From a virus, in the UHGV virus genome UHGV-0087599: DNA of 63,129 bases. One strand, 5' to 3'. Under the pieces are notes generated by a model. It had not been told where the DNA came from. It saw only the letters and a program-made list of their open reading frames with translations, and ran no database searches. The translations under genes were made by a program, and so were the position numbers. Positions 3,993-33,386 of this stretch are shown piece by piece (the first letter of the stretch is position 1; each line of letters starts with the position of its first letter).

Positions 3993-5501
3993 TTACACGA
4001 CGCTGGACAAAGAACTGCGCCTGCGTATGAGTTCGTCCCTGACGTTTTGCATCGTGGTATCCTTATCCATATTGTCCCCACGCTGGATAAGAAGGGCCGC
4101 GTACTGGAGAGCGTCATGCACATGACTCGCATCATTCTTTTCCGGGCTCGGCGTGTACACAGAGCCCAGCGTCCCAGATGCACGCAACTTGCGGTATCGG
4201 TATTCATGCGAGAACCCGCGAATGAGCATCTGACAGGCCGGGTCGATGAGCAACCCTCCGACACGCTGGTTAAGCATATGCTCTACTGTCTGGATGCGGA
4301 CCCTGGGATTGTTCGTCAATTCCGTCACGGCCTTGATACCGGCATCAGCAAAACGCTGTTTGGGCGTGACGGCCTGCCATGAATCCCGGGTATTACTCGG
4401 GTCGATGGCAGCGACCAGAGGATTCGTGCTGTATCTTCCACGCAGCAGCGGTAGCAGCATACCATGCAGGAAATTCTCGAACCCCTCGTTATCAGCGTAC
4501 AATTCATCCAGCACACACCAGGTCCCATTGATGTTTTGCAAGATGACCGCAGCAGGATGGATACCGGACTGGTCGACACCGATGATGATGGGCTGGAAAG
4601 GTCGCGGTTCCAATGCTTCCGCCGCCACATGGATATTGATGTTGAAATTCGAGTAGACCGGCTTGCCATCAACGATAGGCACGTCCATCATGCAATACTG
4701 GTTGTCGATGATGTCCGTGCGCCCGGTCTTGAGCAAGGCATCTATCTGGTTACGGTAATACCGCATACCTTGCTGTTCAGGAGTGAAATCATCCGGGTCC
4801 CCCTCTTCTCTAGCACCCAGATTACGCAGATTCTCGGCATCCGGGTTCACCTCGTAGGTCACAGCACCCGTGACTTCATCAACGTGCTTGAAGGCAGCGG
4901 GGGGCTGCCTGAACACTGCCCAGTTGGGTTGCGGGTTGCGGATGTACTCATCGAGCCAGGAGCCGGGTTCAGGCTGGTTGAAGTCCATGATGGTACCGCC
5001 CCACGAGATACCACCAAGGTCCTGGGACGGGTAACGTCCGATACGTCCTGTGACAGCGTTGTACACTTCGGGCGAACAACCCGTGGCTTCATTGAGCCAG
5101 GCGAAAGTCCAGTTGGCAGACCGCAACTTGTGAGCATCATCAGCCGTCTTGAGGGCCCACAACTCCAGTTCAAGAGAGACCTTGGTGCCGTCAGGCAGCG
5201 GAATGAAGTAGAACCCGCGCACAGGAGCACCAGAACTGGCAATCGTACCATATTCAGCGGGCAGCAGTTCGATAAGCGACCTGCGCGTGGTGGCGATGAG
5301 TTCGGGATAAGACGAACGCACGACCCCGACACGGACATATCGTACACCGTCTGGGGCAGGATTCTGGGCACACGCGCACGTCAGCACATCTGCAACACAG
5401 GCACATGATTTCCCTGACCCATAGGGCCCGACAATCATTTTGAGGTACTTGTCGCAGTTATGCAGGAGCATACCGGTAGGCGAAGGCACATAGTTGAACA
5501 T
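3993..5501 (-). CDS. terL: terminase large subunit
   Basis: Walker A GPYGSGKS near the N-terminus; ATPase-like N-domain and a C-terminal nuclease-like region (HVHDALQYAA); 502 aa; next to the portal. Confidence 0.85.
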   Translation of the reverse strand: MFNYVPSPTGMLLHNCDKYLKMIVGPYGSGKSCACVADVLTCACAQNPAPDGVRYVRVGVVRSSYPELIATTRRSLIELLPAEYGTIASSGAPVRGFYFIPLPDGTKVSLELELWALKTADDAHKLRSANWTFAWLNEATGCSPEVYNAVTGRIGRYPSQDLGGISWGGTIMDFNQPEPGSWLDEYIRNPQPNWAVFRQPPAAFKHVDEVTGAVTYEVNPDAENLRNLGAREEGDPDDFTPEQQGMRYYRNQIDALLKTGRTDIIDNQYCMMDVPIVDGKPVYSNFNINIHVAAEALEPRPFQPIIIGVDQSGIHPAAVILQNINGTWCVLDELYADNEGFENFLHGMLLPLLRGRYSTNPLVAAIDPSNTRDSWQAVTPKQRFADAGIKAVTELTNNPRVRIQTVEHMLNQRVGGLLIDPACQMLIRGFSHEYRYRKLRASGTLGSVYTPSPEKNDASHVHDALQYAALLIQRGDNMDKDTTMQNVRDELIRRRSSLSSVV

Positions 5502-7455: not shown

Positions 7456-8814
7456 TTAGGCGTCCATGGTGCCGTAGTCGGAATAGACCATCAGCTTGCC
7501 ATTGTCGCACTGAATCTGATTGCCCGCAGTCTCGGAAATCATGGAGCAGCCCAAAGAACCGTCCGGGTTGTCTACCATACCGTTGACGATATTCTCGACC
7601 GGGGTCTTGAGGTCAGTTTTAGTCAGCAGCGCACCCTTGTCAGTACCGGTCTTGATGACGTTACCGGCAGCAGCAGACACGATCTTCACGGACAGCTTGC
7701 CGTCGGCACCGGCCTTGATAGCGTTGTCAGCGTCGGAAGAAATCGTGTTGGTGAAGTCCACCACGATGTTGCCGCTTTTATCGAACTTGATACCGGTTCC
7801 CAGCTTGGCAGAGATGGTATGACCGGAGATGGTGATACCCCGACCTGCGGTGTACACATCCACGAGGTCGGTAACATCCACATAGGTGTCGGCCACGGAA
7901 CCATCGGACAGGGCCCAGATGAAGTGCAGGTACATACCGGATTTCAGGCCCACCTGGGGCGTGAAGCTGACAGTGCCGCTGACCGTGGTACCGCTGACAG
8001 CGAACGGGACAGAGGCGGACGACGTGTCATCGAACGTCACCGTGACCGGGCTGGAACCACCTTTCACGGTCTTGTCGTCGCCGTTGAACACAGCACGCAC
8101 AGCAGCGACCGAGGTGCCGCCTTCAGCCAGCTCAGTGGAGTATTCAGCGCTACCGGCGGAACCCTTGGTGGTCGTCACCTGGACACCCACGGCATCAGAC
8201 CAGGTGCCGTTCTGGTCACGGAAAATCAGGGTCAGGTGGTAGTCACCTTCGACCTCTTCACCGCCAGCATCAGGCTTACCGTTCGTCAGTTCAACACCCT
8301 TGAGCACGGAAGTGCTGGACGGGATGGTCACGTTGGCGACTTCGGTGGAACCGTCATGGCCGATGAGTTTCAGCTTACCAGAGGGCTGGTCGTAGGTCAT
8401 GCTGAGGTCAGCGGCGACCTTGCCGTCGGCATCATGCAGAATCTTGTCACCGGCACGGATGATGAGATCGGCGTCAGGGGCCTTAGCATACAGCTTACTG
8501 TCGGAACCGACGGACAGACCGTTGTTGGCGTCGGTGGACACCAGGTCGGTAGCCAGGGAAGTCATGTCCACAGTGAGCGTCACGTCACCAGCGAGAGTGC
8601 CCTTGGTGGAACCGTTCACTTTCAGGTGGGTGTCGCCAGTGACCTTGCGGTCTTCGCGGGCCATAGGAATACCACCGGCAGTGGAACCGTCGTGGACGAC
8701 CACAACCTTCTTATCGGTATCGACAGTCAGTTCGCCGACTTTGCCGGTGTACGCGGCGTGCTGCGCAGTCGTACCACGATACTGCTGGATAACGTCGGGA
8801 GTTTTACGAGCCAT
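7456..8814 (-). CDS. tail-fibre or tailspike paralog B, 452 aa, Mtd_N-like N-terminus
   Basis: N-terminus IQQYRGTTAQHAAYTGKVGELTVDTDKKVVVVHDGSTAGGIPMARED. The middle and C-terminal regions (GKLKLIGHDGST...EGDYHLTLIF...; GMYLHFIWALSDGSVADTYVDVTDLVDVYTAGRGITISG) are homologous to fibre C. Confidence 0.7.
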   Translation of the reverse strand: MARKTPDVIQQYRGTTAQHAAYTGKVGELTVDTDKKVVVVHDGSTAGGIPMAREDRKVTGDTHLKVNGSTKGTLAGDVTLTVDMTSLATDLVSTDANNGLSVGSDSKLYAKAPDADLIIRAGDKILHDADGKVAADLSMTYDQPSGKLKLIGHDGSTEVANVTIPSSTSVLKGVELTNGKPDAGGEEVEGDYHLTLIFRDQNGTWSDAVGVQVTTTKGSAGSAEYSTELAEGGTSVAAVRAVFNGDDKTVKGGSSPVTVTFDDTSSASVPFAVSGTTVSGTVSFTPQVGLKSGMYLHFIWALSDGSVADTYVDVTDLVDVYTAGRGITISGHTISAKLGTGIKFDKSGNIVVDFTNTISSDADNAIKAGADGKLSVKIVSAAAGNVIKTGTDKGALLTKTDLKTPVENIVNGMVDNPDGSLGCSMISETAGNQIQCDNGKLMVYSDYGTMDA

Positions 8815-13636: not shown

Positions 13637-14122
13637 ATGCCTATCAATTTGGCTGGCAAAGTGGCATTTTTCTCTGGTGAATTTGGCGGCAGCGATGGCC
13701 GCCGACCCATCGACGCCAAAACCAAAACCCCCAACGAAGATTACGTCCTCTGCGACGGTATCAAAACCAACGGCATCGCCATCCCCGACCTTCGTGGACT
13801 GATGATTGTCTGCACCTCTGATAACCACCCGATGGGCGAGACCGGTGGGTCTGACACGGCAACCTTCGCCATAGAAGGTACTGTCGGGGGCTGCACCCTC
13901 ACTGTCCAGCAGACACCCAGACATACGCATACAGTACGAGGCATAGGCAGCGCCGCTGGCGGTTTTGGTGGCGGCGGCACTGGCATTTGGGAGGCGACCG
14001 CGACTACTAGCGCCGTCGGCGACTCCCAATCCCATACCCACCCCATTAGAGGAACCGCCTCTGTGGAACGCTCCCTCCCGCCGTACTACGCCCTGGCAGC
14101 AGTCATGTACATCGGCAACTAG
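13637..14122 (+). CDS. phage tail-collar domain protein, 161 aa
   Basis: FFSGEFGG...YVLCDGI...AIPDLRGLMIV...GETGGSDTATFAIEG...TLTVQQTPRHTHTV matches the Phage_Tail_Collar domain pattern; Gly-rich C-terminus. Confidence 0.65.
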   Translation: MPINLAGKVAFFSGEFGGSDGRRPIDAKTKTPNEDYVLCDGIKTNGIAIPDLRGLMIVCTSDNHPMGETGGSDTATFAIEGTVGGCTLTVQQTPRHTHTVRGIGSAAGGFGGGGTGIWEATATTSAVGDSQSHTHPIRGTASVERSLPPYYALAAVMYIGN

Positions 14123-14130
14123 AACAAAAA

Positions 14131-14157
14131 GCCCCCGCTCGAGCGGGGGCTTCGTTT
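14131..14157. terminator. bidirectional rho-independent terminator (perfect 20-nt palindrome gcccccgctcgagcgggggc with T/A runs on both sides)
   Basis: Sequence aaaaagcccccgctcgagcgggggcttcgttt. Confidence 0.7.
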
Positions 14158-14283
14158 ACAACTCATCCAGTTCTTTCTATATAGCGTGTTTTCGCGGATG
14201 CGCTCCCCCGCTGCCTATGTACGACCGATAGTATCCGGCGTAAACATAACACATCACCTCCCTAAATATGTGTCGAGTATCCC

Positions 14284-14469
14284 TTACGCGTCCATCTCGA
14301 AGTGGTCGCAGACAGAGAATGCCTTAGTACGGAAACCGAACTTGCCGCAGGTGAGTTTTTCTCCATATTCTCCTAAGCGACGGTAGTGCTTACAGGTATT
14401 GCAGGCTTCGATTCGCGCCTGTTCCTTCCACCCGACAGATTTCTTGGGTACTCTCTTTCCTTCAGGCAT
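14284..14469 (-). CDS. small zinc-ribbon-like protein, 61 aa
   Basis: Cys pattern CNTCKHY...CGKFGF...CDHF. Confidence 0.4.
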   Translation of the reverse strand: MPEGKRVPKKSVGWKEQARIEACNTCKHYRRLGEYGEKLTCGKFGFRTKAFSVCDHFEMDA

Positions 14470-15945
14470 AGTCGTCTCCTTTGTTCACAGCATAGCGCCT
14501 ACGAGGCGCTGTATCACTTGACATCCTCCCCCGCCTAAAGTCGGGGGATTCCTATCGGTAGCAGCTCTAACGAGCCGCGCCACAGGCGGGTTCCTGCTTC
14601 GACGCGGGCGCTTGAGCCCTTCCCGCTCCACAGGCTGTCACGGCCTGCCCGGCCGCCAGAATGTTCAACGCCGCATTATGGTCGGCGTTACATTCAAACC
14701 CGCAGGCCGTACATTTGAATTTTGCCTGCGTTGGTCTGTTTGCTCTGTCTACGCATCCACAATGACTGCATGTCTGACTGGTATACTGCGGAGGTATGAC
14801 AACCAGCTTTCCACCCAGCCATTTCAACTTGTACTCAAGCTGCCGCCGAAACTCGAACCATCCCTGATCCAATATGGACTTGTTTAATCCGGCCTTGGCT
14901 CGCACGTTTCTTCCAGGAGCTTCCACAGTGCCTGACGCCGACCGCGACATATTCCGCACCTTCAAATCTTCAATCACAACAAGAGCGTGGTTTTTGCTGA
15001 TTATCGTGGTTGTCTTATGCAGAAAATCGTTGCGTACATTGGCTATTGTACGGTGCAGGCGCTGGATTTTGGCTTTGAGCTTCTGCCAGTTGACGGAAAA
15101 CTTCACTCGTTTTGCCAACTTCCGCTGCAGCTTTGCCAGCTTCTTTTCATGCTTACGGAAAATATGCAGTGGTCTGATAGAAGAGCCATCTGAAAACGTC
15201 GCAAAACGGGCAATGCCCATATCTATGCCGACGACACTTTGCGAAGGATGCACAGGTTCTGGAACTTCCCGTTCCGTCTGAATGGAGACGTACCACTTTC
15301 CAGCGGAAAGAGAGACTGTCACCTGTTTCGGCGTTCCCTCTATTTTGCGGCTGTTGCGGTAGCGTATCCACCCGATTTTGGGAAGGAATATGCGGCTGTT
15401 GCTTTCGTCCAGCTTGAAGCCCTGCGGATAGCGAAAGGCATCGTGAAGACCTTTCTTCTTGAAACGTGGGAACCCGGCACGCTTCTCAAAGAAGTTTTTG
15501 TAGGCTCTATCGAGGTCTTTCAAGACTTGCTGCAGAATTTGAGAATGGGCTTCAGAAAGAAAAGAAGTAGCGTTTTCCTTCTTCCAATCCCGAAGGAACT
15601 TGCAGAGCAAGGAAAAGCCCAGACGCTTCCCTTCGTTTTCGTAGGTTTCCTTTTCCGATGCAAGCGCCTTGTTCCAAACAAAACGGCAACATCCGGCAAA
15701 GCGCCGCATGAGGCTTTCCTGCCCGGTTTTGGGGCGGAGTTGAAACTTGTAGGCTTGCAATATTTCCATAGGTTCCAGTCTATCGCAGCACAAACGAAAA
15801 GGCAAAAATTCCAGTTAAGGTGCGCCTTATATCCCCGCCCTGAAGGGCGAGGCTTTACGGCGCGCTGGGTAATCCTTATCAGAAGTCTTCACTTGACGCA
15901 AAACACGGGACAAAGAATCCTGTGTCTTAATATCGAATGCATTCA
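14470..15945 (-). mobile_element. IS200/IS605-family (IS1341-like) insertion carrying only tnpB; boundaries approximate
   Basis: tnpB is flanked by subterminal hairpins. Right end: 14494..14510 agcgcctacgaggcgct and 14528..14547 cccccgcctaaagtcggggg. Left end: 15836..15849 cgccctgaagggcg. Flanking phage genes are intact; no tnpA. Confidence 0.7.
14567..15769 (-). CDS. tnpB: TnpB (OrfB) RNA-guided endonuclease-type transposase-associated protein; start moved to MEILQAYKFQLRP
   Basis: Canonical N-terminus (AYKFQLRP...GCCRFVWNKAL), RuvC-like segments (GIDMGIARFATFSDG; ALVVIEDLKV) and a C-terminal zinc finger CSHCG...CTACGFECNADHNAALNI; 400 aa. Confidence 0.85.
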   Translation of the reverse strand: MEILQAYKFQLRPKTGQESLMRRFAGCCRFVWNKALASEKETYENEGKRLGFSLLCKFLRDWKKENATSFLSEAHSQILQQVLKDLDRAYKNFFEKRAGFPRFKKKGLHDAFRYPQGFKLDESNSRIFLPKIGWIRYRNSRKIEGTPKQVTVSLSAGKWYVSIQTEREVPEPVHPSQSVVGIDMGIARFATFSDGSSIRPLHIFRKHEKKLAKLQRKLAKRVKFSVNWQKLKAKIQRLHRTIANVRNDFLHKTTTIISKNHALVVIEDLKVRNMSRSASGTVEAPGRNVRAKAGLNKSILDQGWFEFRRQLEYKLKWLGGKLVVIPPQYTSQTCSHCGCVDRANRPTQAKFKCTACGFECNADHNAALNILAAGQAVTACGAGRAQAPASKQEPACGAAR

Positions 15946-16137
15946 TTACCTGTTCTCCAGGAGGTCAGAAATTATGACCACGAGCCATATCAGCATCAGG
16001 ACGATGCGAACAACGGCCCCGGCCTGGACCCACCCCGGCATAGTGGACAGCGTGTACAACACACCAAACACATCAGTCACGATACCGAAAACAACGAGAG
16101 CGACGAAAAAGGCCACTACCCAGTACACACGAGACAC
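15946..16137 (-). CDS. small 2-TM membrane protein, 63 aa (holin-like topology)
   Basis: Two hydrophobic helices (VVAFFVALVVFGIV; VVRIVLMLIWLVVII). Confidence 0.35.
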   Translation of the reverse strand: MSRVYWVVAFFVALVVFGIVTDVFGVLYTLSTMPGWVQAGAVVRIVLMLIWLVVIISDLLENR

Positions 16138-16140
16138 GGA

Positions 16141-16782
16141 TTAACCCTTCCCGGAAAGTGTCTCATCCTCAGCAGAGGATTTCTCCATAGTGTCGGCCCT
16201 GCTTAAAGAATGTCGCACAGGCAACAGTTCAGGATGACCCAGGGCAGGGAAAAGCGCGTCGAAGAAAAATTTCCACTCAGGGAGCTTGTGGTTCTCGCGC
16301 TGCAAGATGATGTTCTTCAGGACCGCATAGTTCCCCGTCCAGATGCGACGCTGCAACCAGCTCTGCGGGAGCCAGGCGTTGAGCCTGCTGAAATCCTTGT
16401 GCTTCCGCAAATCTTCCAGGAAGTCGATATAGAAATCAGGAACATACCCGAACTCGAAGCAATCCTTCGTGACAGGCTTCTTCATCAGCGTGTGCATCGT
16501 GGACTCGGACTGGGCCACGGTGGACACCTTGTAGGTGTCCATCTGCTTCCACCAGTACAGCGGCGCCGTGATGTCGAGGATGACACCTATCTGCCGCAGG
16601 AACTTGTCATGGCCACCGCTGCCGTACAGCGCGAGTTGCGGCGCCAGTTCGCACAGCCTGGACCATTCATCATGCTGCTGGGCCTCTTCGGGCGTCGCAT
16701 ACCCGGACACCTTCCCATACGAGAGCCCGATACCGAACAGGGCCTCTTCGTACCCGAATTCTTTCATCAGCCGAACACGCAT
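16141..16782 (-). CDS. hypothetical protein, 213 aa; weak ThyX-like resemblance, uncertain
   Basis: Segment APLYWWKQMDTYKVSTVAQSES loosely resembles the ThyX RHR...SQRY region but lacks the catalytic Arg residues; adjacent to dUTPase. Confidence 0.3.
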   Translation of the reverse strand: MRVRLMKEFGYEEALFGIGLSYGKVSGYATPEEAQQHDEWSRLCELAPQLALYGSGGHDKFLRQIGVILDITAPLYWWKQMDTYKVSTVAQSESTMHTLMKKPVTKDCFEFGYVPDFYIDFLEDLRKHKDFSRLNAWLPQSWLQRRIWTGNYAVLKNIILQRENHKLPEWKFFFDALFPALGHPELLPVRHSLSRADTMEKSSAEDETLSGKG

Positions 16783-16783
16783 A

Positions 16784-17080
16784 TCAGTTGTCCTCCTTGA
16801 GCCACGCCTCAAGCGCAGCTTCTCCATCCTTGGTCAAAAGATAATACCCACGCACATTGCCGCGATGTCTGGGCAGTCCGATGCGCATGAGGAACCCCTT
16901 GCCGCACAGCTTGTTGGCCATCGCGCAGGCACGCATGGCAATACCCTGACGATACCGCGCGGAAGGTTTCCTGGGCGGTAACGACGCGAAGGCCCTGAGA
17001 CCCAGCACATAGCCGAACGCCTGACCCCTCGGCAGGTCAGCCACGGCCTTCAGGATACGGTATTCCGCCAGTGTCAGCAT
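16784..17080 (-). CDS. winged-helix DNA-binding protein (PadR/MarR-like), 98 aa
   Basis: GYYLLTKDGEAALEAW wing motif and a preceding helix-turn-helix. Confidence 0.4.
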   Translation of the reverse strand: MLTLAEYRILKAVADLPRGQAFGYVLGLRAFASLPPRKPSARYRQGIAMRACAMANKLCGKGFLMRIGLPRHRGNVRGYYLLTKDGEAALEAWLKEDN

Positions 17081-30137: not shown

Positions 30138-33100
30138 ATGCCTGAAAGCACGCTTGTCGTCATAGACTTCGAGACCTATTGGGACAGCAAAACGTACACG
30201 CTGTCGAAGATGGGTCCCATCGAGTATGTCCGTAACGAAAAATTCACTCCGCAGCTTTGCGCCTTTACCCTGTCCAACGGCTCGTGTTGCGTGGACTGTT
30301 CCGTCGTTGAACATGAGCGTCTGAGAACGACGTTTGAAAATCTGGATACGCATGACGTTGCCTGGTGCGGGCATAACATGCACGGCTTCGACAGTCTCAT
30401 CCTGTCGGAGTTCTTCGACTTCCATCCCCAGAAAATCTACGACACCATCGCCATGATGCGATGGACAGGCTTGTCTCGTGTGTGTCGTGAGAGCCATGCC
30501 GCCCTCACCGAGTTCCTCGGCAACGGCAACAAGGCTGCCGGTACCGTCGTCAGTGACCACAAGCAATGGCCGGACGACTTCACGCCGGAAGAGCGGGCGT
30601 TCTTCATCCAATACTGCAAAGACGACGCCGCGCAATGCTACCAAAACGCACAGGCCATGCTGCCTTACATGACACCTGATGCCCTGCGCTTCATGTCCAT
30701 CACGGCCCGCATGGCCACAGAACCTTCGTTCGTGCTGGATGAAGACCTGCTGCTGGAATACCTGTCCGACCTCGACGCCGCTGCGGACAAGGCGCGGCAA
30801 GAACTCATGGCCATGTTCTCATTCCAAACCAACGCAGACATGCTGGCTGCGCTGCGTTCGGCTGACAAGTTCGCCGATATGCTGCGCTCCCTGGGTGTCG
30901 AACCTCCGCTCAAAGAGAGTGCGGCGAAGACCAAGACCAAGAGGGAAAAGCTCCAGCTCGCTGCCGATGTCGGGAGACCAGGAGCTGCTGAAGAGCTGGA
31001 GAACATGCAGCCTGTGATGACCTATGCCTTCAGCAAGACCGACGTGGACTTCGTCCTCATGCAAGACCATCCCGACCCTCGTGTCGCGCTGCTCGTGCGC
31101 ACCAGGTTGCAGCTCAACAGCAGCATCGACCGCAGCAGGGCTGAGACCTTGCTCAAGTTTGCCCGGATGCATAAGCCCCTGCCTATCATGCTCGGAGCGT
31201 GGCTGGCGCATACGGGACGGTATTCCGCCGGTGCTTCCGCCGACGCCGGGACGAAGACCGACAAGCTCCAGTTCCAGAACCTGAGCAAGCGGGACCCTTC
31301 CAAGCGCAAGCTCCGGCAAGCCATCAAGGTCCCGAAGGGCAAGGTCGTCGTGGCCTGCGACTCTTCCCAGATTGAAGCGCGTGGGCTGGCCTTCGTGGCC
31401 AACGAGGTCGGGCTGCTCACGCAGTTCCGCGAAGGTCGTGACCCGTATTCGGAACTGGCCGAGACCATCTTCGGTGTGCCGTGGCAAGACATCAAGGCCG
31501 GGGCCAAGGCGGGCGACAAGCAGATGAAAATGTACCGTAACACCGGGAAGACTGGTATCCTGTCGTGTCTTGCGGGCACGGTGGAGGTATTAACAAATAC
31601 GGGGTGGAAACGTATTGATACGGTATCTGTTAATGATAAAGTTTGGGATGGCGTATCATGGGTGAAACACGAAGGACTTATCTGCAATGGCTGGAGGAAT
31701 ACCATCAACGTGGCTGGGATAGACATGACTCCAGACCACTTAGTGTTCGACGGTTCCTCTTGGAGAATGGCTGCCGAATTACTGGGCGAACCCCGTTATT
31801 TGAAATCGGCGACCGAGTGGGCGAGCGCGTCATACGAGACTGTGCTGTTGACACATCAGAAGGACATCGCACCATATGGGTTCTCGCCGCGTGTATTAAC
31901 TGCGGCACCGAACGATGGTATAGAGGCTATACCTTGGCTAATGGAAAGGTTAGCAAGTTGTGCACGCACTGCTCGCCACGAGACCTTGAGCATCTTACAA
32001 GTTTTAAGAGGCGTACTAAAGACCCTGAAGTCGGTGCCGTCTTTGGCGAACTCACAGTTCTTGACAACGACCGTCACGAATACGTTGATACCAATGGCAG
32101 AAAACGTACAGAGTACCGTTCATTGGTGCAGTGCTCTTGCGGGGCAGAACCCCATTGGGTATTGCAAAGTAATCTGCGTAGCGGACGGACCACAAGATGT
32201 GATGCTTGTGCAAAGAAGAAAGCAAGAGCAGCACAAGACAAAAAGTATTGGCACTATGCAGATGTGGTGCCGGATACTGCAACACGTCGGCGATTACTTG
32301 CGCGTATTTCCGCATGTATCACACGATGCAGTCCGACACAGAATAAGTGTAAAGCCTGGAAACATTATGGAGGCCGGGGTATCCGAGTCGAATTTCCAGA
32401 CCGTAGAACCTTTCTCGAGTATCTTATCACGCTGCCGGGATATGATGACCCGTCTTTGGAGCTGGATAGGATTGATTGTGACGGGAACTACGCGCCAGGT
32501 AATCTCCGTTTTGTTACGCAGGCGACGAATATACATAACCGAAGACAGGTTGGGGACTTGCAGCAGAAGCTCGACCATATCAGAAAAAATAAAGCCTTGC
32601 TTGCATGGTGTATCGGTGCCGTCCAATACCAATTGCATACAAAAGGTGTACGACCTGAAGAACTGTGGCCCGAACAACCGTTTCCTGATACGTCAGGGGG
32701 GGACGGTACTGATGGTGCATAATTGTGGATACGGTGTAGGCCACACAAAATACAGCAACACGCTGCTGCGGCAGGGAATCCACCTGCATGAAGACCTCGA
32801 CCGTCACCATGAGCTGGCCCGTTATGCCCACGGCATCTACAGGGCAGCACATCCCAACATCGTCGCCTTCTGGAAGACGGCGGAGAATGTTCTGGAGGCC
32901 ATGCTGCGTGGCGAATCCGGTACCTTCGGCGGCCCCAACAATGACATCTACACCTTCGGCATCATGCCGGTGGGCCCCAGGACTGACCTGTGTGTGCCGT
33001 CTGTCCAGTTCCCGAGCGGCTACATCCTGCGCTACCCAGGCCTGCGTGCCGAGCGTAACGACCGGGGAAAGTGGCAGTTCCTCTATGATACTTACAAGGG

Positions 33101-33386
33101 TGCTTCCAAAATTCCTACCCATATTTATGGGGGGGCGTTTACAAATAATCTCGTTCAGGGTCTTTCCTTCGTTGACGTTATTATGTATCAAGGTTGTCGG
33201 ATGGATGAGGCCGGAATCAAGCTGGCCTGCAACATCCACGACGCCTGGGCATCTGTCGTGCCGGAAGAGCAGGGCGAGTATGTGAAGCAGCAGATGCTCC
33301 ACTACATGTCCATAGTCCCGCCTGCTCTCAATGGTTTGCCTGTGGCGTGTGAAGCGGAGATAGGGACGACCTTCGAAATCGTCTAG
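30138..33386 (+). CDS. family-A DNA polymerase with N-terminal 3'-5' exonuclease, interrupted in motif B by a 386-aa intein
   Basis: Exo I VIDFETYWD; motif A ACDSSQIEARG; motif B split as RNTGKTGILS / CGYGVG; motif C NIHDAW. Frame stays open for 1082 aa; extein total 696 aa. Confidence 0.9.
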   Translation: MPESTLVVIDFETYWDSKTYTLSKMGPIEYVRNEKFTPQLCAFTLSNGSCCVDCSVVEHERLRTTFENLDTHDVAWCGHNMHGFDSLILSEFFDFHPQKIYDTIAMMRWTGLSRVCRESHAALTEFLGNGNKAAGTVVSDHKQWPDDFTPEERAFFIQYCKDDAAQCYQNAQAMLPYMTPDALRFMSITARMATEPSFVLDEDLLLEYLSDLDAAADKARQELMAMFSFQTNADMLAALRSADKFADMLRSLGVEPPLKESAAKTKTKREKLQLAADVGRPGAAEELENMQPVMTYAFSKTDVDFVLMQDHPDPRVALLVRTRLQLNSSIDRSRAETLLKFARMHKPLPIMLGAWLAHTGRYSAGASADAGTKTDKLQFQNLSKRDPSKRKLRQAIKVPKGKVVVACDSSQIEARGLAFVANEVGLLTQFREGRDPYSELAETIFGVPWQDIKAGAKAGDKQMKMYRNTGKTGILSCLAGTVEVLTNTGWKRIDTVSVNDKVWDGVSWVKHEGLICNGWRNTINVAGIDMTPDHLVFDGSSWRMAAELLGEPRYLKSATEWASASYETVLLTHQKDIAPYGFSPRVLTAAPNDGIEAIPWLMERLASCARTARHETLSILQVLRGVLKTLKSVPSLANSQFLTTTVTNTLIPMAENVQSTVHWCSALAGQNPIGYCKVICVADGPQDVMLVQRRKQEQHKTKSIGTMQMWCRILQHVGDYLRVFPHVSHDAVRHRISVKPGNIMEAGVSESNFQTVEPFSSILSRCRDMMTRLWSWIGLIVTGTTRQVISVLLRRRRIYITEDRLGTCSRSSTISEKIKPCLHGVSVPSNTNCIQKVYDLKNCGPNNRFLIRQGGTVLMVHNCGYGVGHTKYSNTLLRQGIHLHEDLDRHHELARYAHGIYRAAHPNIVAFWKTAENVLEAMLRGESGTFGGPNNDIYTFGIMPVGPRTDLCVPSVQFPSGYILRYPGLRAERNDRGKWQFLYDTYKGASKIPTHIYGGAFTNNLVQGLSFVDVIMYQGCRMDEAGIKLACNIHDAWASVVPEEQGEYVKQQMLHYMSIVPPALNGLPVACEAEIGTTFEIV
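31566..32723 (+). mobile_element. intein inside polA motif B, with low-GC composition
   Basis: Starts CLAGTVEVLTNTGWKRIDTV (block A) and has TPDHLVF (block B). Ends KVYDLKNCGPNNRFLIRQGGTVLMVHN followed by Cys+1. GC about 45% versus about 60% in flanks. Confidence 0.8.
31643..32722 (+). CDS. alternative-frame (+2) ORF inside the intein encoding an HNH homing-endonuclease domain with zinc knuckles
   Basis: WKHYGGRGIRVEF...LELDRIDCDGNYAPGNLRFVTQATNIHN (HNH_3-like) plus CINCG/CTHCS/CSCG/CDAC. Its TAA stop lies inside the intein's terminal CAT-AAT codons. Whether it is translated on its own (ATG at 31643) or is a frameshifted endonuclease domain is unresolved. Confidence 0.5.
   Translation: MGWRIMGETRRTYLQWLEEYHQRGWDRHDSRPLSVRRFLLENGCRITGRTPLFEIGDRVGERVIRDCAVDTSEGHRTIWVLAACINCGTERWYRGYTLANGKVSKLCTHCSPRDLEHLTSFKRRTKDPEVGAVFGELTVLDNDRHEYVDTNGRKRTEYRSLVQCSCGAEPHWVLQSNLRSGRTTRCDACAKKKARAAQDKKYWHYADVVPDTATRRRLLARISACITRCSPTQNKCKAWKHYGGRGIRVEFPDRRTFLEYLITLPGYDDPSLELDRIDCDGNYAPGNLRFVTQATNIHNRRQVGDLQQKLDHIRKNKALLAWCIGAVQYQLHTKGVRPEELWPEQPFPDTSGGDGTDGA

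Follow-up and report, generated by a model that had tools for sequence, protein, structure and literature searches.

A probable non-autonomous, tnpA-deleted IS605-group element with a predicted omega-RNA in an uncultured gut phage

Introduction

How should a solitary, intact tnpB gene in a gut phage be understood: as part of a stranded insertion sequence, or as one half of an RNA-guided nuclease that could act on the genomes of competing phages? The question is raised by a locus of the UHGV virus genome UHGV-0087599, of which one stretch of 63,129 nucleotides was analysed as a whole (the window). Phage-borne tnpB has been discussed before (bioRxiv 10.64898/2026.02.14.705889), and 620 of 50,697 deposited phage genomes, about 1%, have a TnpB homologue, so that taken alone this locus would be a routine annotation of a well-known family. 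Based on comparison with related insertion sequences and with sister phages, we consider it probable that positions 15868..14518 are a non-autonomous, tnpA-deleted copy of an IS605-group element residing in a phage of about 62 kb, and that this explains the locus as a whole.

The window is phage DNA, with genes for a family-A DNA polymerase, a primase-helicase, a helicase, an internal virion protein, tail-fibre-like proteins and a dUTPase. Contigs related to it measure about 62 kb, and those relatives that are in culture are very distant. A megablast search with the region returned one 249-bp match only among GenBank phages, and no match among E. coli genomes. We infer the probable host from TnpB copies, 82-90% identical to that of the window, in Desulfovibrio and Mailhella assemblies.

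Results

Ends and architecture of the element

We compared 80 viral and 80 genomic loci encoding TnpB relatives and added seven sister-phage loci, obtained via a neighbouring 228-aa gene. From these comparisons, 15868..14518 is an insertion sequence of the IS200/IS605 family, 1,351 bp long and read on the minus strand. Its ends were set in two ways: other IS copies, including L001 (94%), L002, L003 and the Desulfovibrio and Mailhella copies, are homologous over exactly 15872..14518, and the sister phages align to 15869 and again from 14517. A reading made earlier from the DNA letters alone (the sequence-only reading) had put the boundaries near 15945 and 14470, which is off by 48 to 77 nt. The parts of the element are as follows.

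15869..15872, minus strand: TTAC, the target/TAM tetranucleotide directly 5' of the left end (TTAC or TTAT in 21 copies)
15770..15868, minus strand: left end (LE), 99 nt, from the LE alignment and an inverted repeat
15863..15822, minus strand: imperfect palindrome of the LE, from an inverted-repeat search, with the core hairpin at 15852..15833
15856..15853, minus strand: AAAG, the putative internal guide tetranucleotide of the LE, from covariation with the flank
15796..15770, minus strand: remnant of the 3' end of tnpA within the LE, about 27 nt, from alignment to full copies
14567..15769, minus strand: tnpB, an intact ORF of 400 aa starting MEILQAYKF, from the ORF, profiles and structure alignment
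14518..14661, minus strand: right end (RE), coinciding with the predicted omega-RNA scaffold, from covariation and a covariance model
14548..14527, minus strand: subterminal hairpin of the RE, from covariation
14521..14518, minus strand: terminal TCAA of the RE, from the conserved RE end

The element adjoins TTAC (15872..15869) on its 5' side, and its terminal sequence is ...GGATGTCAA. The RE terminus ...GGAGGATGTCAA is kept in more than 90 copies, and the flanks downstream of it are unrelated among them. Between the left flank ..GATTAC and the right flank GTGATAC there is no target duplication, and terminal inverted repeats are also absent; instead, subterminal imperfect palindromes lie at both ends and the insertion is 3' of a fixed tetranucleotide, as is the rule in this family. 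By every sequence criterion except the missing tnpA, the element is therefore IS200/IS605. In dozens of copies the hairpins of the LE and RE are maintained, with compensatory changes, and the window copy keeps both of the ends that TnpA recognises. Two of the three hairpins previously assigned to the IS ends hold up, 14528..14547 in the RE and 15836..15849 as the core of the LE palindrome; the third, 14494..14510, is phage DNA outside the element, and in IS-less sister phages it belongs to the last codons of a gene. The TTAC flank is at the same time the last codon (..GAT TAC) of the interrupted phage gene.

TnpB is intact and under purifying selection

The TnpB profile search, whose failure was to have counted against the sequence-only reading, succeeded, and the IS ends are intact. 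The protein matches the Pfam families HTH_OrfB_IS605, OrfB_IS605 and Cas12f1-like_TNB at 66.4, 103.5 and 86.6 bits, each above its cut-off, and the NCBIfam guided_TnpB model (RNA-guided endonuclease TnpB family) at 385.5 bits against a cut-off of 100. The solved ISDra2 TnpB aligns over about 375 residues (E = 1e-53), placing D183, E267 and D363 on the catalytic positions of the RuvC triad, and the zinc-finger cysteines C334, C337, C353 and C356 are all present. The description of a 400-aa TnpB with RuvC segments and a C-terminal zinc finger, with D-E-D and Cys4 aligned to ISDra2, was thus correct. Comparison with five homologues of exactly 400 aa each gave dN/dS values of 0.10-0.28, which shows that TnpB is under purifying selection. 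The 400-aa ORF is intact in the window, L182, L001, L002, L088 and L003, and tnpB is truncated or frameshifted in other copies, for example L067 and L093. Within the Desulfovibrionaceae clade, TnpB proteins are 82-94% identical; an exact-protein look-up returned no identical TnpB on record.

A search of 14100..16300 for a sigma-70-like promoter was negative. Since tnpB lies on the same strand as the flanking phage genes, read-through transcription is likely.

Secondary loss of tnpA

As had been noticed from the letters, tnpA is missing: tblastn with TnpA from full copies of the same family found none anywhere in the window, and no second IS copy was found in the window either. Full copies in a phage contig (L002) and in Desulfovibrio (L088) have a divergent 138-aa Y1 tnpA between about nt 72 of the LE and tnpB, the product of which matches Pfam Y1_Tnp (E = 4e-43) and also the NCBIfam IS200/IS605 transposase. 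One identical deletion of about 430 bp, leaving about 27 nt of the tnpA 3' end, is common to the window, L001, L089 and L182. The window copy does not encode the Y1 HUH TnpA that characterises an autonomous IS605-group element and, since its full siblings do, it is a non-autonomous derivative. The tnpA-less form occurs in at least three unrelated contexts (the site shared by the window and L182, L001, and a Desulfovibrio assembly), and it has therefore been mobilised in trans. With tnpB as its sole gene, the element falls into the IS1341 group by gene content only; this membership is nominal because the 27-nt tnpA remnant and the full-length siblings mark the state as secondary. Accordingly, the previous label of an IS605/IS1341-type solo TnpB is right about the IS200/IS605 family and the solo tnpB, and wrong in so far as the lack of tnpA reflects a secondary deletion and not a primary IS1341-type organisation.

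A conserved omega-RNA scaffold is predicted at the right end

From an alignment of 49 non-redundant copies over their final 150 nt, we derived a structure with RNAalifold, completed by hand. It has six helices with 28 pairs, of which 18 show compensatory changes, and 93.9% of the paired cells are standard; none of 500 shuffled alignments reached the observed pairing, and slid controls were 46-49% paired. An independent covariance model, R1, was built from 38 distant copies with the window clade excluded. It finds 14661..14518 on the minus strand at full length with 99.5 bits (E about 2e-29) and has no other match, that is, no second omega-RNA, in the window. These results show the conservation of a predicted structured omega-RNA scaffold of about 144 nt, although covariation in the terminal hairpin, which TnpA also binds as ssDNA, cannot separate a role in RNA from one in DNA. 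The final 95 nt of tnpB lie within the scaffold, which extends no further than the right end. Its parts are a RAGATH-18-like stem (14634..14591), an invariant GGAAT 5' of the hairpin at 14548..14527, that hairpin itself, and the terminal TCAA. At gathering thresholds, Rfam had no match to the window or to any of six related loci. Relaxed thresholds gave a sub-threshold RAGATH-18 match (30.9 bits, E = 8e-4, 14634..14591) and HgcC, both on the correct strand and just inside the RE.

The first phage bases after the RE would serve as the guide, since this flank differs completely between copies.

14502..14517, minus strand: predicted 16-nt guide, GTGATACAGCGCCTCG

The covariance search that the sequence-only reading had proposed thus recovered a scaffold, by covariation and by the independent model. 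Its idea of an omega-RNA 3' of tnpB guided by flanking phage DNA is borne out as far as both are predicted, with the guide at 14517..14502, about 48 nt from the place it had implied.

The left-end tetranucleotide covaries with the target

TnpA is reported to find its target, the TAM, by base pairing with a DNA guide in the LE (PMC10055086). In a set of 21 distinct copies, 6 of 6 with a TTAC flank have the tetranucleotide AAAG directly 5' of the LE hairpin, and 15 of 15 with a TTAT flank have AAAA there, two of the latter with an offset of one base. The window copy belongs to the AAAG/TTAC group. This pattern matches that expected under LE DNA-guide targeting by TnpA and is a clean natural confirmation of the rule. 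Such base pairing is the classical model for IS608, in which TTAC and a right terminus of TCAA are likewise found.

Turning to TnpB, no residue column was found that separates the TTAC-flanked from the TTAT-flanked copies, and TTAT is the natural flank of TnpBs 82-94% identical to that of the window. Judging only from the absence of covarying residues, the window TnpB likely tolerates TTAY.

An ancestral right junction and a rearranged left junction

The phage sequences on both sides of the element were compared with those of the sister phages.

15946..16137, minus strand: intact upstream phage gene of 63 aa, hydrophobic, from the ORF list and sister comparison
15869..15946, minus strand: 5' gene fragment of 26 codons, MNAFDIKTQDSLSRVLRQVKTSDKDY (..KDY), from a gene of about 145 aa in all sister phages
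14485..14517, minus strand: 3' gene fragment of 10 codons, VIQRLVGAML*, the end of a sister-phage gene of about 148 aa
14284..14469, minus strand: intact downstream phage gene of 61 aa with a CxxC..C motif, conserved in sister phages

In the window, the 26-codon fragment reads on into the LE for 13 codons. The fragments on the left and right share one codon phase. Between the two flanks, all seven sister loci have 0.8-2.7 kb of sequence that the window lacks. The missing stretch is a variable array of small genes in the sister phages, for which no Pfam or PHROG function was found.

The right junction, RE joined to GTGATACAG, is common to at least six related contigs, most of them already without tnpB. 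L182, a metagenome contig, has the full tnpA-less element at the same right junction, with the IS 95.0% and the right flank 96.7% identical to the window; its left flank, ending in ..TTTGATTAC, differs from that of the window. Others keep at this junction only RE remnants without tnpB, of 79 nt (L084 and L180), 114 nt (L081 and L172) and about 140 nt (L179), the last being a complete omega scaffold of 87.9 bits. Altogether, tnpB is kept in only 2 of about 12 related contigs. Because the same right junction recurs across contigs, the insertion predates the divergence of these phages, and tnpB has been lost at least three times. Judged from these junctions, the right junction is ancestral and the element has been inherited within the phage clade. 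Comparison with related phages, proposed at the outset as the way to fix the ends, did define them together with the TTAC flank, and what it revealed is no fresh insertion but a right junction shared by at least six contigs. L170 and most metagenome pattern matches were rejected as chance matches.

By the same comparison, the left junction of the window is secondary and goes back to a rearrangement in which 0.8-2.7 kb of small accessory genes were lost. Two origins of it are conceivable: deletion or illegitimate recombination at the GATTAC microhomology that it has in common with the L182-type flank, or a recombination event involving two IS copies. The junction to be expected from the latter, RE joined to GAAGTCTTCAAGAA, had no match in IMG/VR, which neither proves nor excludes the two-copy history. 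A junction of RE to GAAGTCTTCAAG, or of the ~148-aa gene (..TTAC) to LE, would be the mark distinguishing two-copy recombination from microhomology deletion.

Sister phages carry the predicted target, unoccupied

In four sister contigs (L083, L086, L087 and L187) the site is unoccupied and reads ..CATTAT followed by GTGATACAG(C/T)GCCTC(G/A): the guide-identical sequence of these IS-less phages follows TTAT, with 15-16 of 16 nt matching the guide. The predicted recognition site is therefore the unoccupied allele of close relatives, as in homing systems. The sister-phage sites are TTAT, and the window flank and LE guide are of the TTAC type. In L082 the target is mutated at guide positions 1-3 and 12, and in L085 the region is absent. 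The search for further sites matching the guide, another of the checks proposed with the sequence-only reading, found no second target in the window and, in IMG/VR, TTAY-adjacent matches at the sister phages' empty sites only.

Discussion

Predicted activity of TnpB and its omega-RNA

TnpB-omega-RNA complexes cleave vacant sites and promote retention of their elements by recombination (PMC10055086, PMC10690162). By analogy with these related complexes, vacant-site cleavage and retention is the most likely predicted activity here. Going by the family, read-through on the minus strand or transcription driven from the LE would yield TnpB and an omega-RNA with 16 nt at its 3' end, GUGAUACAGCGCCUCG, that derive from the adjoining phage DNA. 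The ribonucleoprotein would then cut TTAY followed by the guide sequence, which is the unoccupied allele, and the element would be restored or spread when recombination repaired the break from an occupied genome. To move at all, the element would require Y1 TnpA supplied in trans from full-length copies in the host or in other phages. In a phage without tnpA, the classical trigger, excision that makes a donor joint, depends on a TnpA copy of the host. In the phage setting, the complex could accordingly act on the genomes of relatives that infect the same cell or, once a host TnpA has excised the element, on the donor joint left in the phage itself.

Homing between phages, raised as a possibility in the sequence-only reading, is plausible on account of the near-perfect guide matches in four sister contigs and the right-end remnants in others; the anti-competitor role that it also raised would be conjecture. 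A more specific proposal is that, during mixed infection, the TnpB-omega-RNA complex turns on sister phages as an RNA-guided nuclease for homing or marker exclusion. The cut would fall at the sister TTAT-GTGATACAGCGCCTCG site, at the 3' end of the ~148-aa gene; in the repair that followed, with the IS-bearing genome as template, the element would take the place of up to 2.7 kb of accessory genes in the rival; and the RE remnants of the sisters (79-140 nt, flush with the same flank), which part the TAM from the target, would make their genomes immune, so that the remnants persist. We regard this linked scheme as unlikely. Since few relatives keep tnpB and at least three have lost it, decay of the element is here at least as frequent as its spread. 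Natural TnpBs are not all active in assays: HpyTnpB of IS608 was found inactive (PMC10055086). The loss of tnpB in most relatives, the lack of a promoter-like site and the inactivity of the IS608 TnpB in published assays all speak against a strong drive.

Alternative explanations

The alternative that deserves most attention is that the element is a passive, decaying passenger, a stranded non-autonomous IS whose TnpB and omega-RNA are not made, or are idle, during infection and which is heading for deletions of the sister type. The window without tnpA, the three or more independent losses of tnpB at the same site in relatives, the failure to find a promoter-like site in 14100..16300, and the truncated or frameshifted tnpB of other copies such as L067 and L093 would all agree with it. 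However, the 400-aa ORF is intact in the window, L182, L001, L002, L088 and L003 with dN/dS of 0.10-0.28, both ends and the entire omega scaffold are intact, and tnpB is co-oriented with the flanking phage genes, so that read-through is likely. We therefore hold this passenger state to be possible but doubtful. It is very unlikely, on the other hand, that TnpB has been domesticated for a new phage role, as a guide-directed repressor, an anti-defence factor or an anti-host nuclease, and no longer serves transposon maintenance. Phage-borne tnpB is widespread (620 of 50,697 phage records), and at least one is induced during infection (bioRxiv 10.64898/2026.02.14.705889), but the catalytic triad is intact and the protein hence no nuclease-dead derivative, both IS ends are canonical, and the guide is merely flanking DNA, as in mobile copies, with TTAY-adjacent matches in IMG/VR at the sister empty sites only and no second match in the window. 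With catalytic residues and both IS ends intact, we rejected a nuclease-dead or domesticated TnpB.

The sequence-only reading had the element inserted between two intact genes, and a simple recent insertion of this kind, with ends near 15945 and 14470, can draw on the flanking 63-aa and 61-aa genes, which are indeed intact. The mapped ends at 15868 and 14518 contradict it. What actually flanks the element is codon 26 of the ~145-aa gene on the left and, on the right, the final 10 codons of a gene situated 0.8-2.7 kb away in seven of seven sister loci, the sister genes in between being missing; moreover, L182 has the same right junction with another left flank, and five further contigs have it with remnants. 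End mapping and the comparison of sister-phage junctions thus refute a simple recent insertion, which we give hardly any chance.

Comparison with known systems

The element shares several properties with the ISDra2 TnpB-omega-RNA of Deinococcus radiodurans (PDB 8EXA, 8BF8, 8H1J), namely the RuvC D-E-D triad and the zinc finger. As in ISDra2, the omega-RNA overlaps the 3' end of tnpB and stops at the RE, with flanking DNA as the guide. The window TnpB is homologous but divergent in sequence, with a 15-aa insertion after E267, and unlike ISDra2 the window copy lacks tnpA and has TTAY as its TAM. The TAM of ISDra2 is TTGAT.

In the layout of its ends and target (TTAC, then LE ... RE-TCAA), the element resembles IS608 of Helicobacter pylori, a member of the IS605 group. 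Both insert 3' of TTAC, have a right end of TCAA and similar subterminal hairpins, and have a tetranucleotide 5' of the LE hairpin that covaries with the target; neither has terminal inverted repeats or a target duplication. Unlike in IS608, full copies of the window's family have tnpA divergent from tnpB, and the window copy is entirely without tnpA.

RAGATH-18 is the core of the reRNA of IS607 TnpBs (PMC11061315), and compared with that of ISFba1 (PMC11061315) the window stem CCUGUGGAG...GAAGCAGGAA (14634..14591) matches the RAGATH-18 consensus over the full model. The score, however, is 30.9 bits against a gathering score of 44.9, and the inner hairpin is 11 nt and not 38 nt. Further, the partner transposase of the window's family is a Y1 TnpA and not a serine recombinase, the IS607 TAM is AGGAG, and NCBIfam IS607_TnpB scores the window TnpB at 189.8 bits with a cut-off of 350. 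Since both the Rfam gathering score and the IS607_TnpB cut-off were missed, we rejected an IS607/RAGATH-18 system.

Phage homing endonuclease genes, for example those of T-even phages, would follow the same predicted logic, in which one phage has the nuclease gene and the recognition site is the unoccupied allele of close relatives; unlike theirs, recognition here would be RNA-guided.

The value of this locus lies in a compact natural test set at a single site in one small phage clade: an occupied allele in two left contexts, an empty one that matches the guide perfectly, one in which the target is mutated, and three different tnpB-less scars. With the ends, TAM and guide defined to the base, a cultured host would allow a direct test of TnpB homing between co-infecting phages.

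The closest named phage-borne homologues are the tnpB genes, annotated 'insQ' or IS605, of Escherichia phage RCS47, Salmonella phage SJ46 and Morganella phage IME1369_01, the products of which are 60-61% identical over 97-98% of the window protein. These enterobacterial phage elements fall into another clade than the Desulfovibrionaceae clade of the window. The ...GGAGGATGTCAA end and a TTAT flank are also found in chromosomal relatives from enterobacteria (Serratia, Pantoea and Kluyvera loci).

Scars and predicted excision products

Three related phage contigs (L081, L084 and L179) retain remnants of the right end (RE) of the element without tnpB. These scars differ from one another, yet all of them run from RE into one small phage ORF (MKIFIIVPLDFKFSTLSTVGQQFEK..), which is 131 aa long in relatives lacking the IS:

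L081, ORF part 7693-7767: 114 nt of RE plus the first 75 nt of the ORF
L084, ORF part 8045-8085: 79 nt of RE plus the first 41 nt of the ORF
L179, ORF part 5117-5179 (reverse complement): ~140 nt of RE plus the first 63 nt of the ORF

At the L179 junction, which falls within a GGGCAG microhomology, the TnpB C-terminus and the small ORF are fused in frame. The scar end points are more tightly clustered than would be expected of independent random deletions. The window has no counterpart of these ORF segments.

Precise excision of the IS would join 1526-1584 to 2936-2968 in L182 (a metagenome contig with the full tnpA-less IS) and restore a 29-codon ORF, MWGKFKVWFVDMTDAAFDY-VIQRLVGAML*, which has its own ribosome-binding site. 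The same event in the window would fuse the 26-codon gene fragment left of the IS in frame to VIQRLVGAML*. Upstream in L182, an 85-bp segment (509-593) is a duplicate homologous to window 14183..14266.

ORFs overlapping or flanking the IS

A long ORF of 301-337 aa lies antisense to tnpB in the window, L182 and the Desulfovibrio locus L088:

window 15239-16144 (+)
L088:2995-4008 (-)
L182:1507-2466 (-)

It resembles the "TnpB_rev" frame that bioRxiv 10.64898/2026.02.14.705889 reports in cyanophage A-1(L). The antisense ORF could also be an artefact of codon composition.

Two ORFs occupy equivalent positions, though the left flanks otherwise differ:

window 16784-17080 (-): 98-aa ORF upstream of the IS locus
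L182:624-944 (+): 106-aa ORF

From sub-threshold matches, both look like distant winged-helix, PadR-like regulators.

Candidate insertions in other phage genes

In phage contig L002, the complete tnpA+tnpB IS lies ~25 nt downstream of a terminase-like ORF:

L002:970-4470 (+): terminase-like ORF, 1,166 aa

This ORF seems to contain intein-like insertions, on motifs (..CADDTPVLTVDG.. and ..VLVHNC) read by eye. A second, isolated sequence resembling the left end of the IS occurs at L002:380-421.

The window also encodes a family-A DNA polymerase:

window 30138-33386 (+): family-A DNA polymerase ORF, 1,082 aa

Its polymerase matches fall in two pieces (residues 4-478 and 900-1072), between which lies a phrog_93 endonuclease-like segment (residues 496-560); insertion of a homing endonuclease or of an intein may explain this arrangement.
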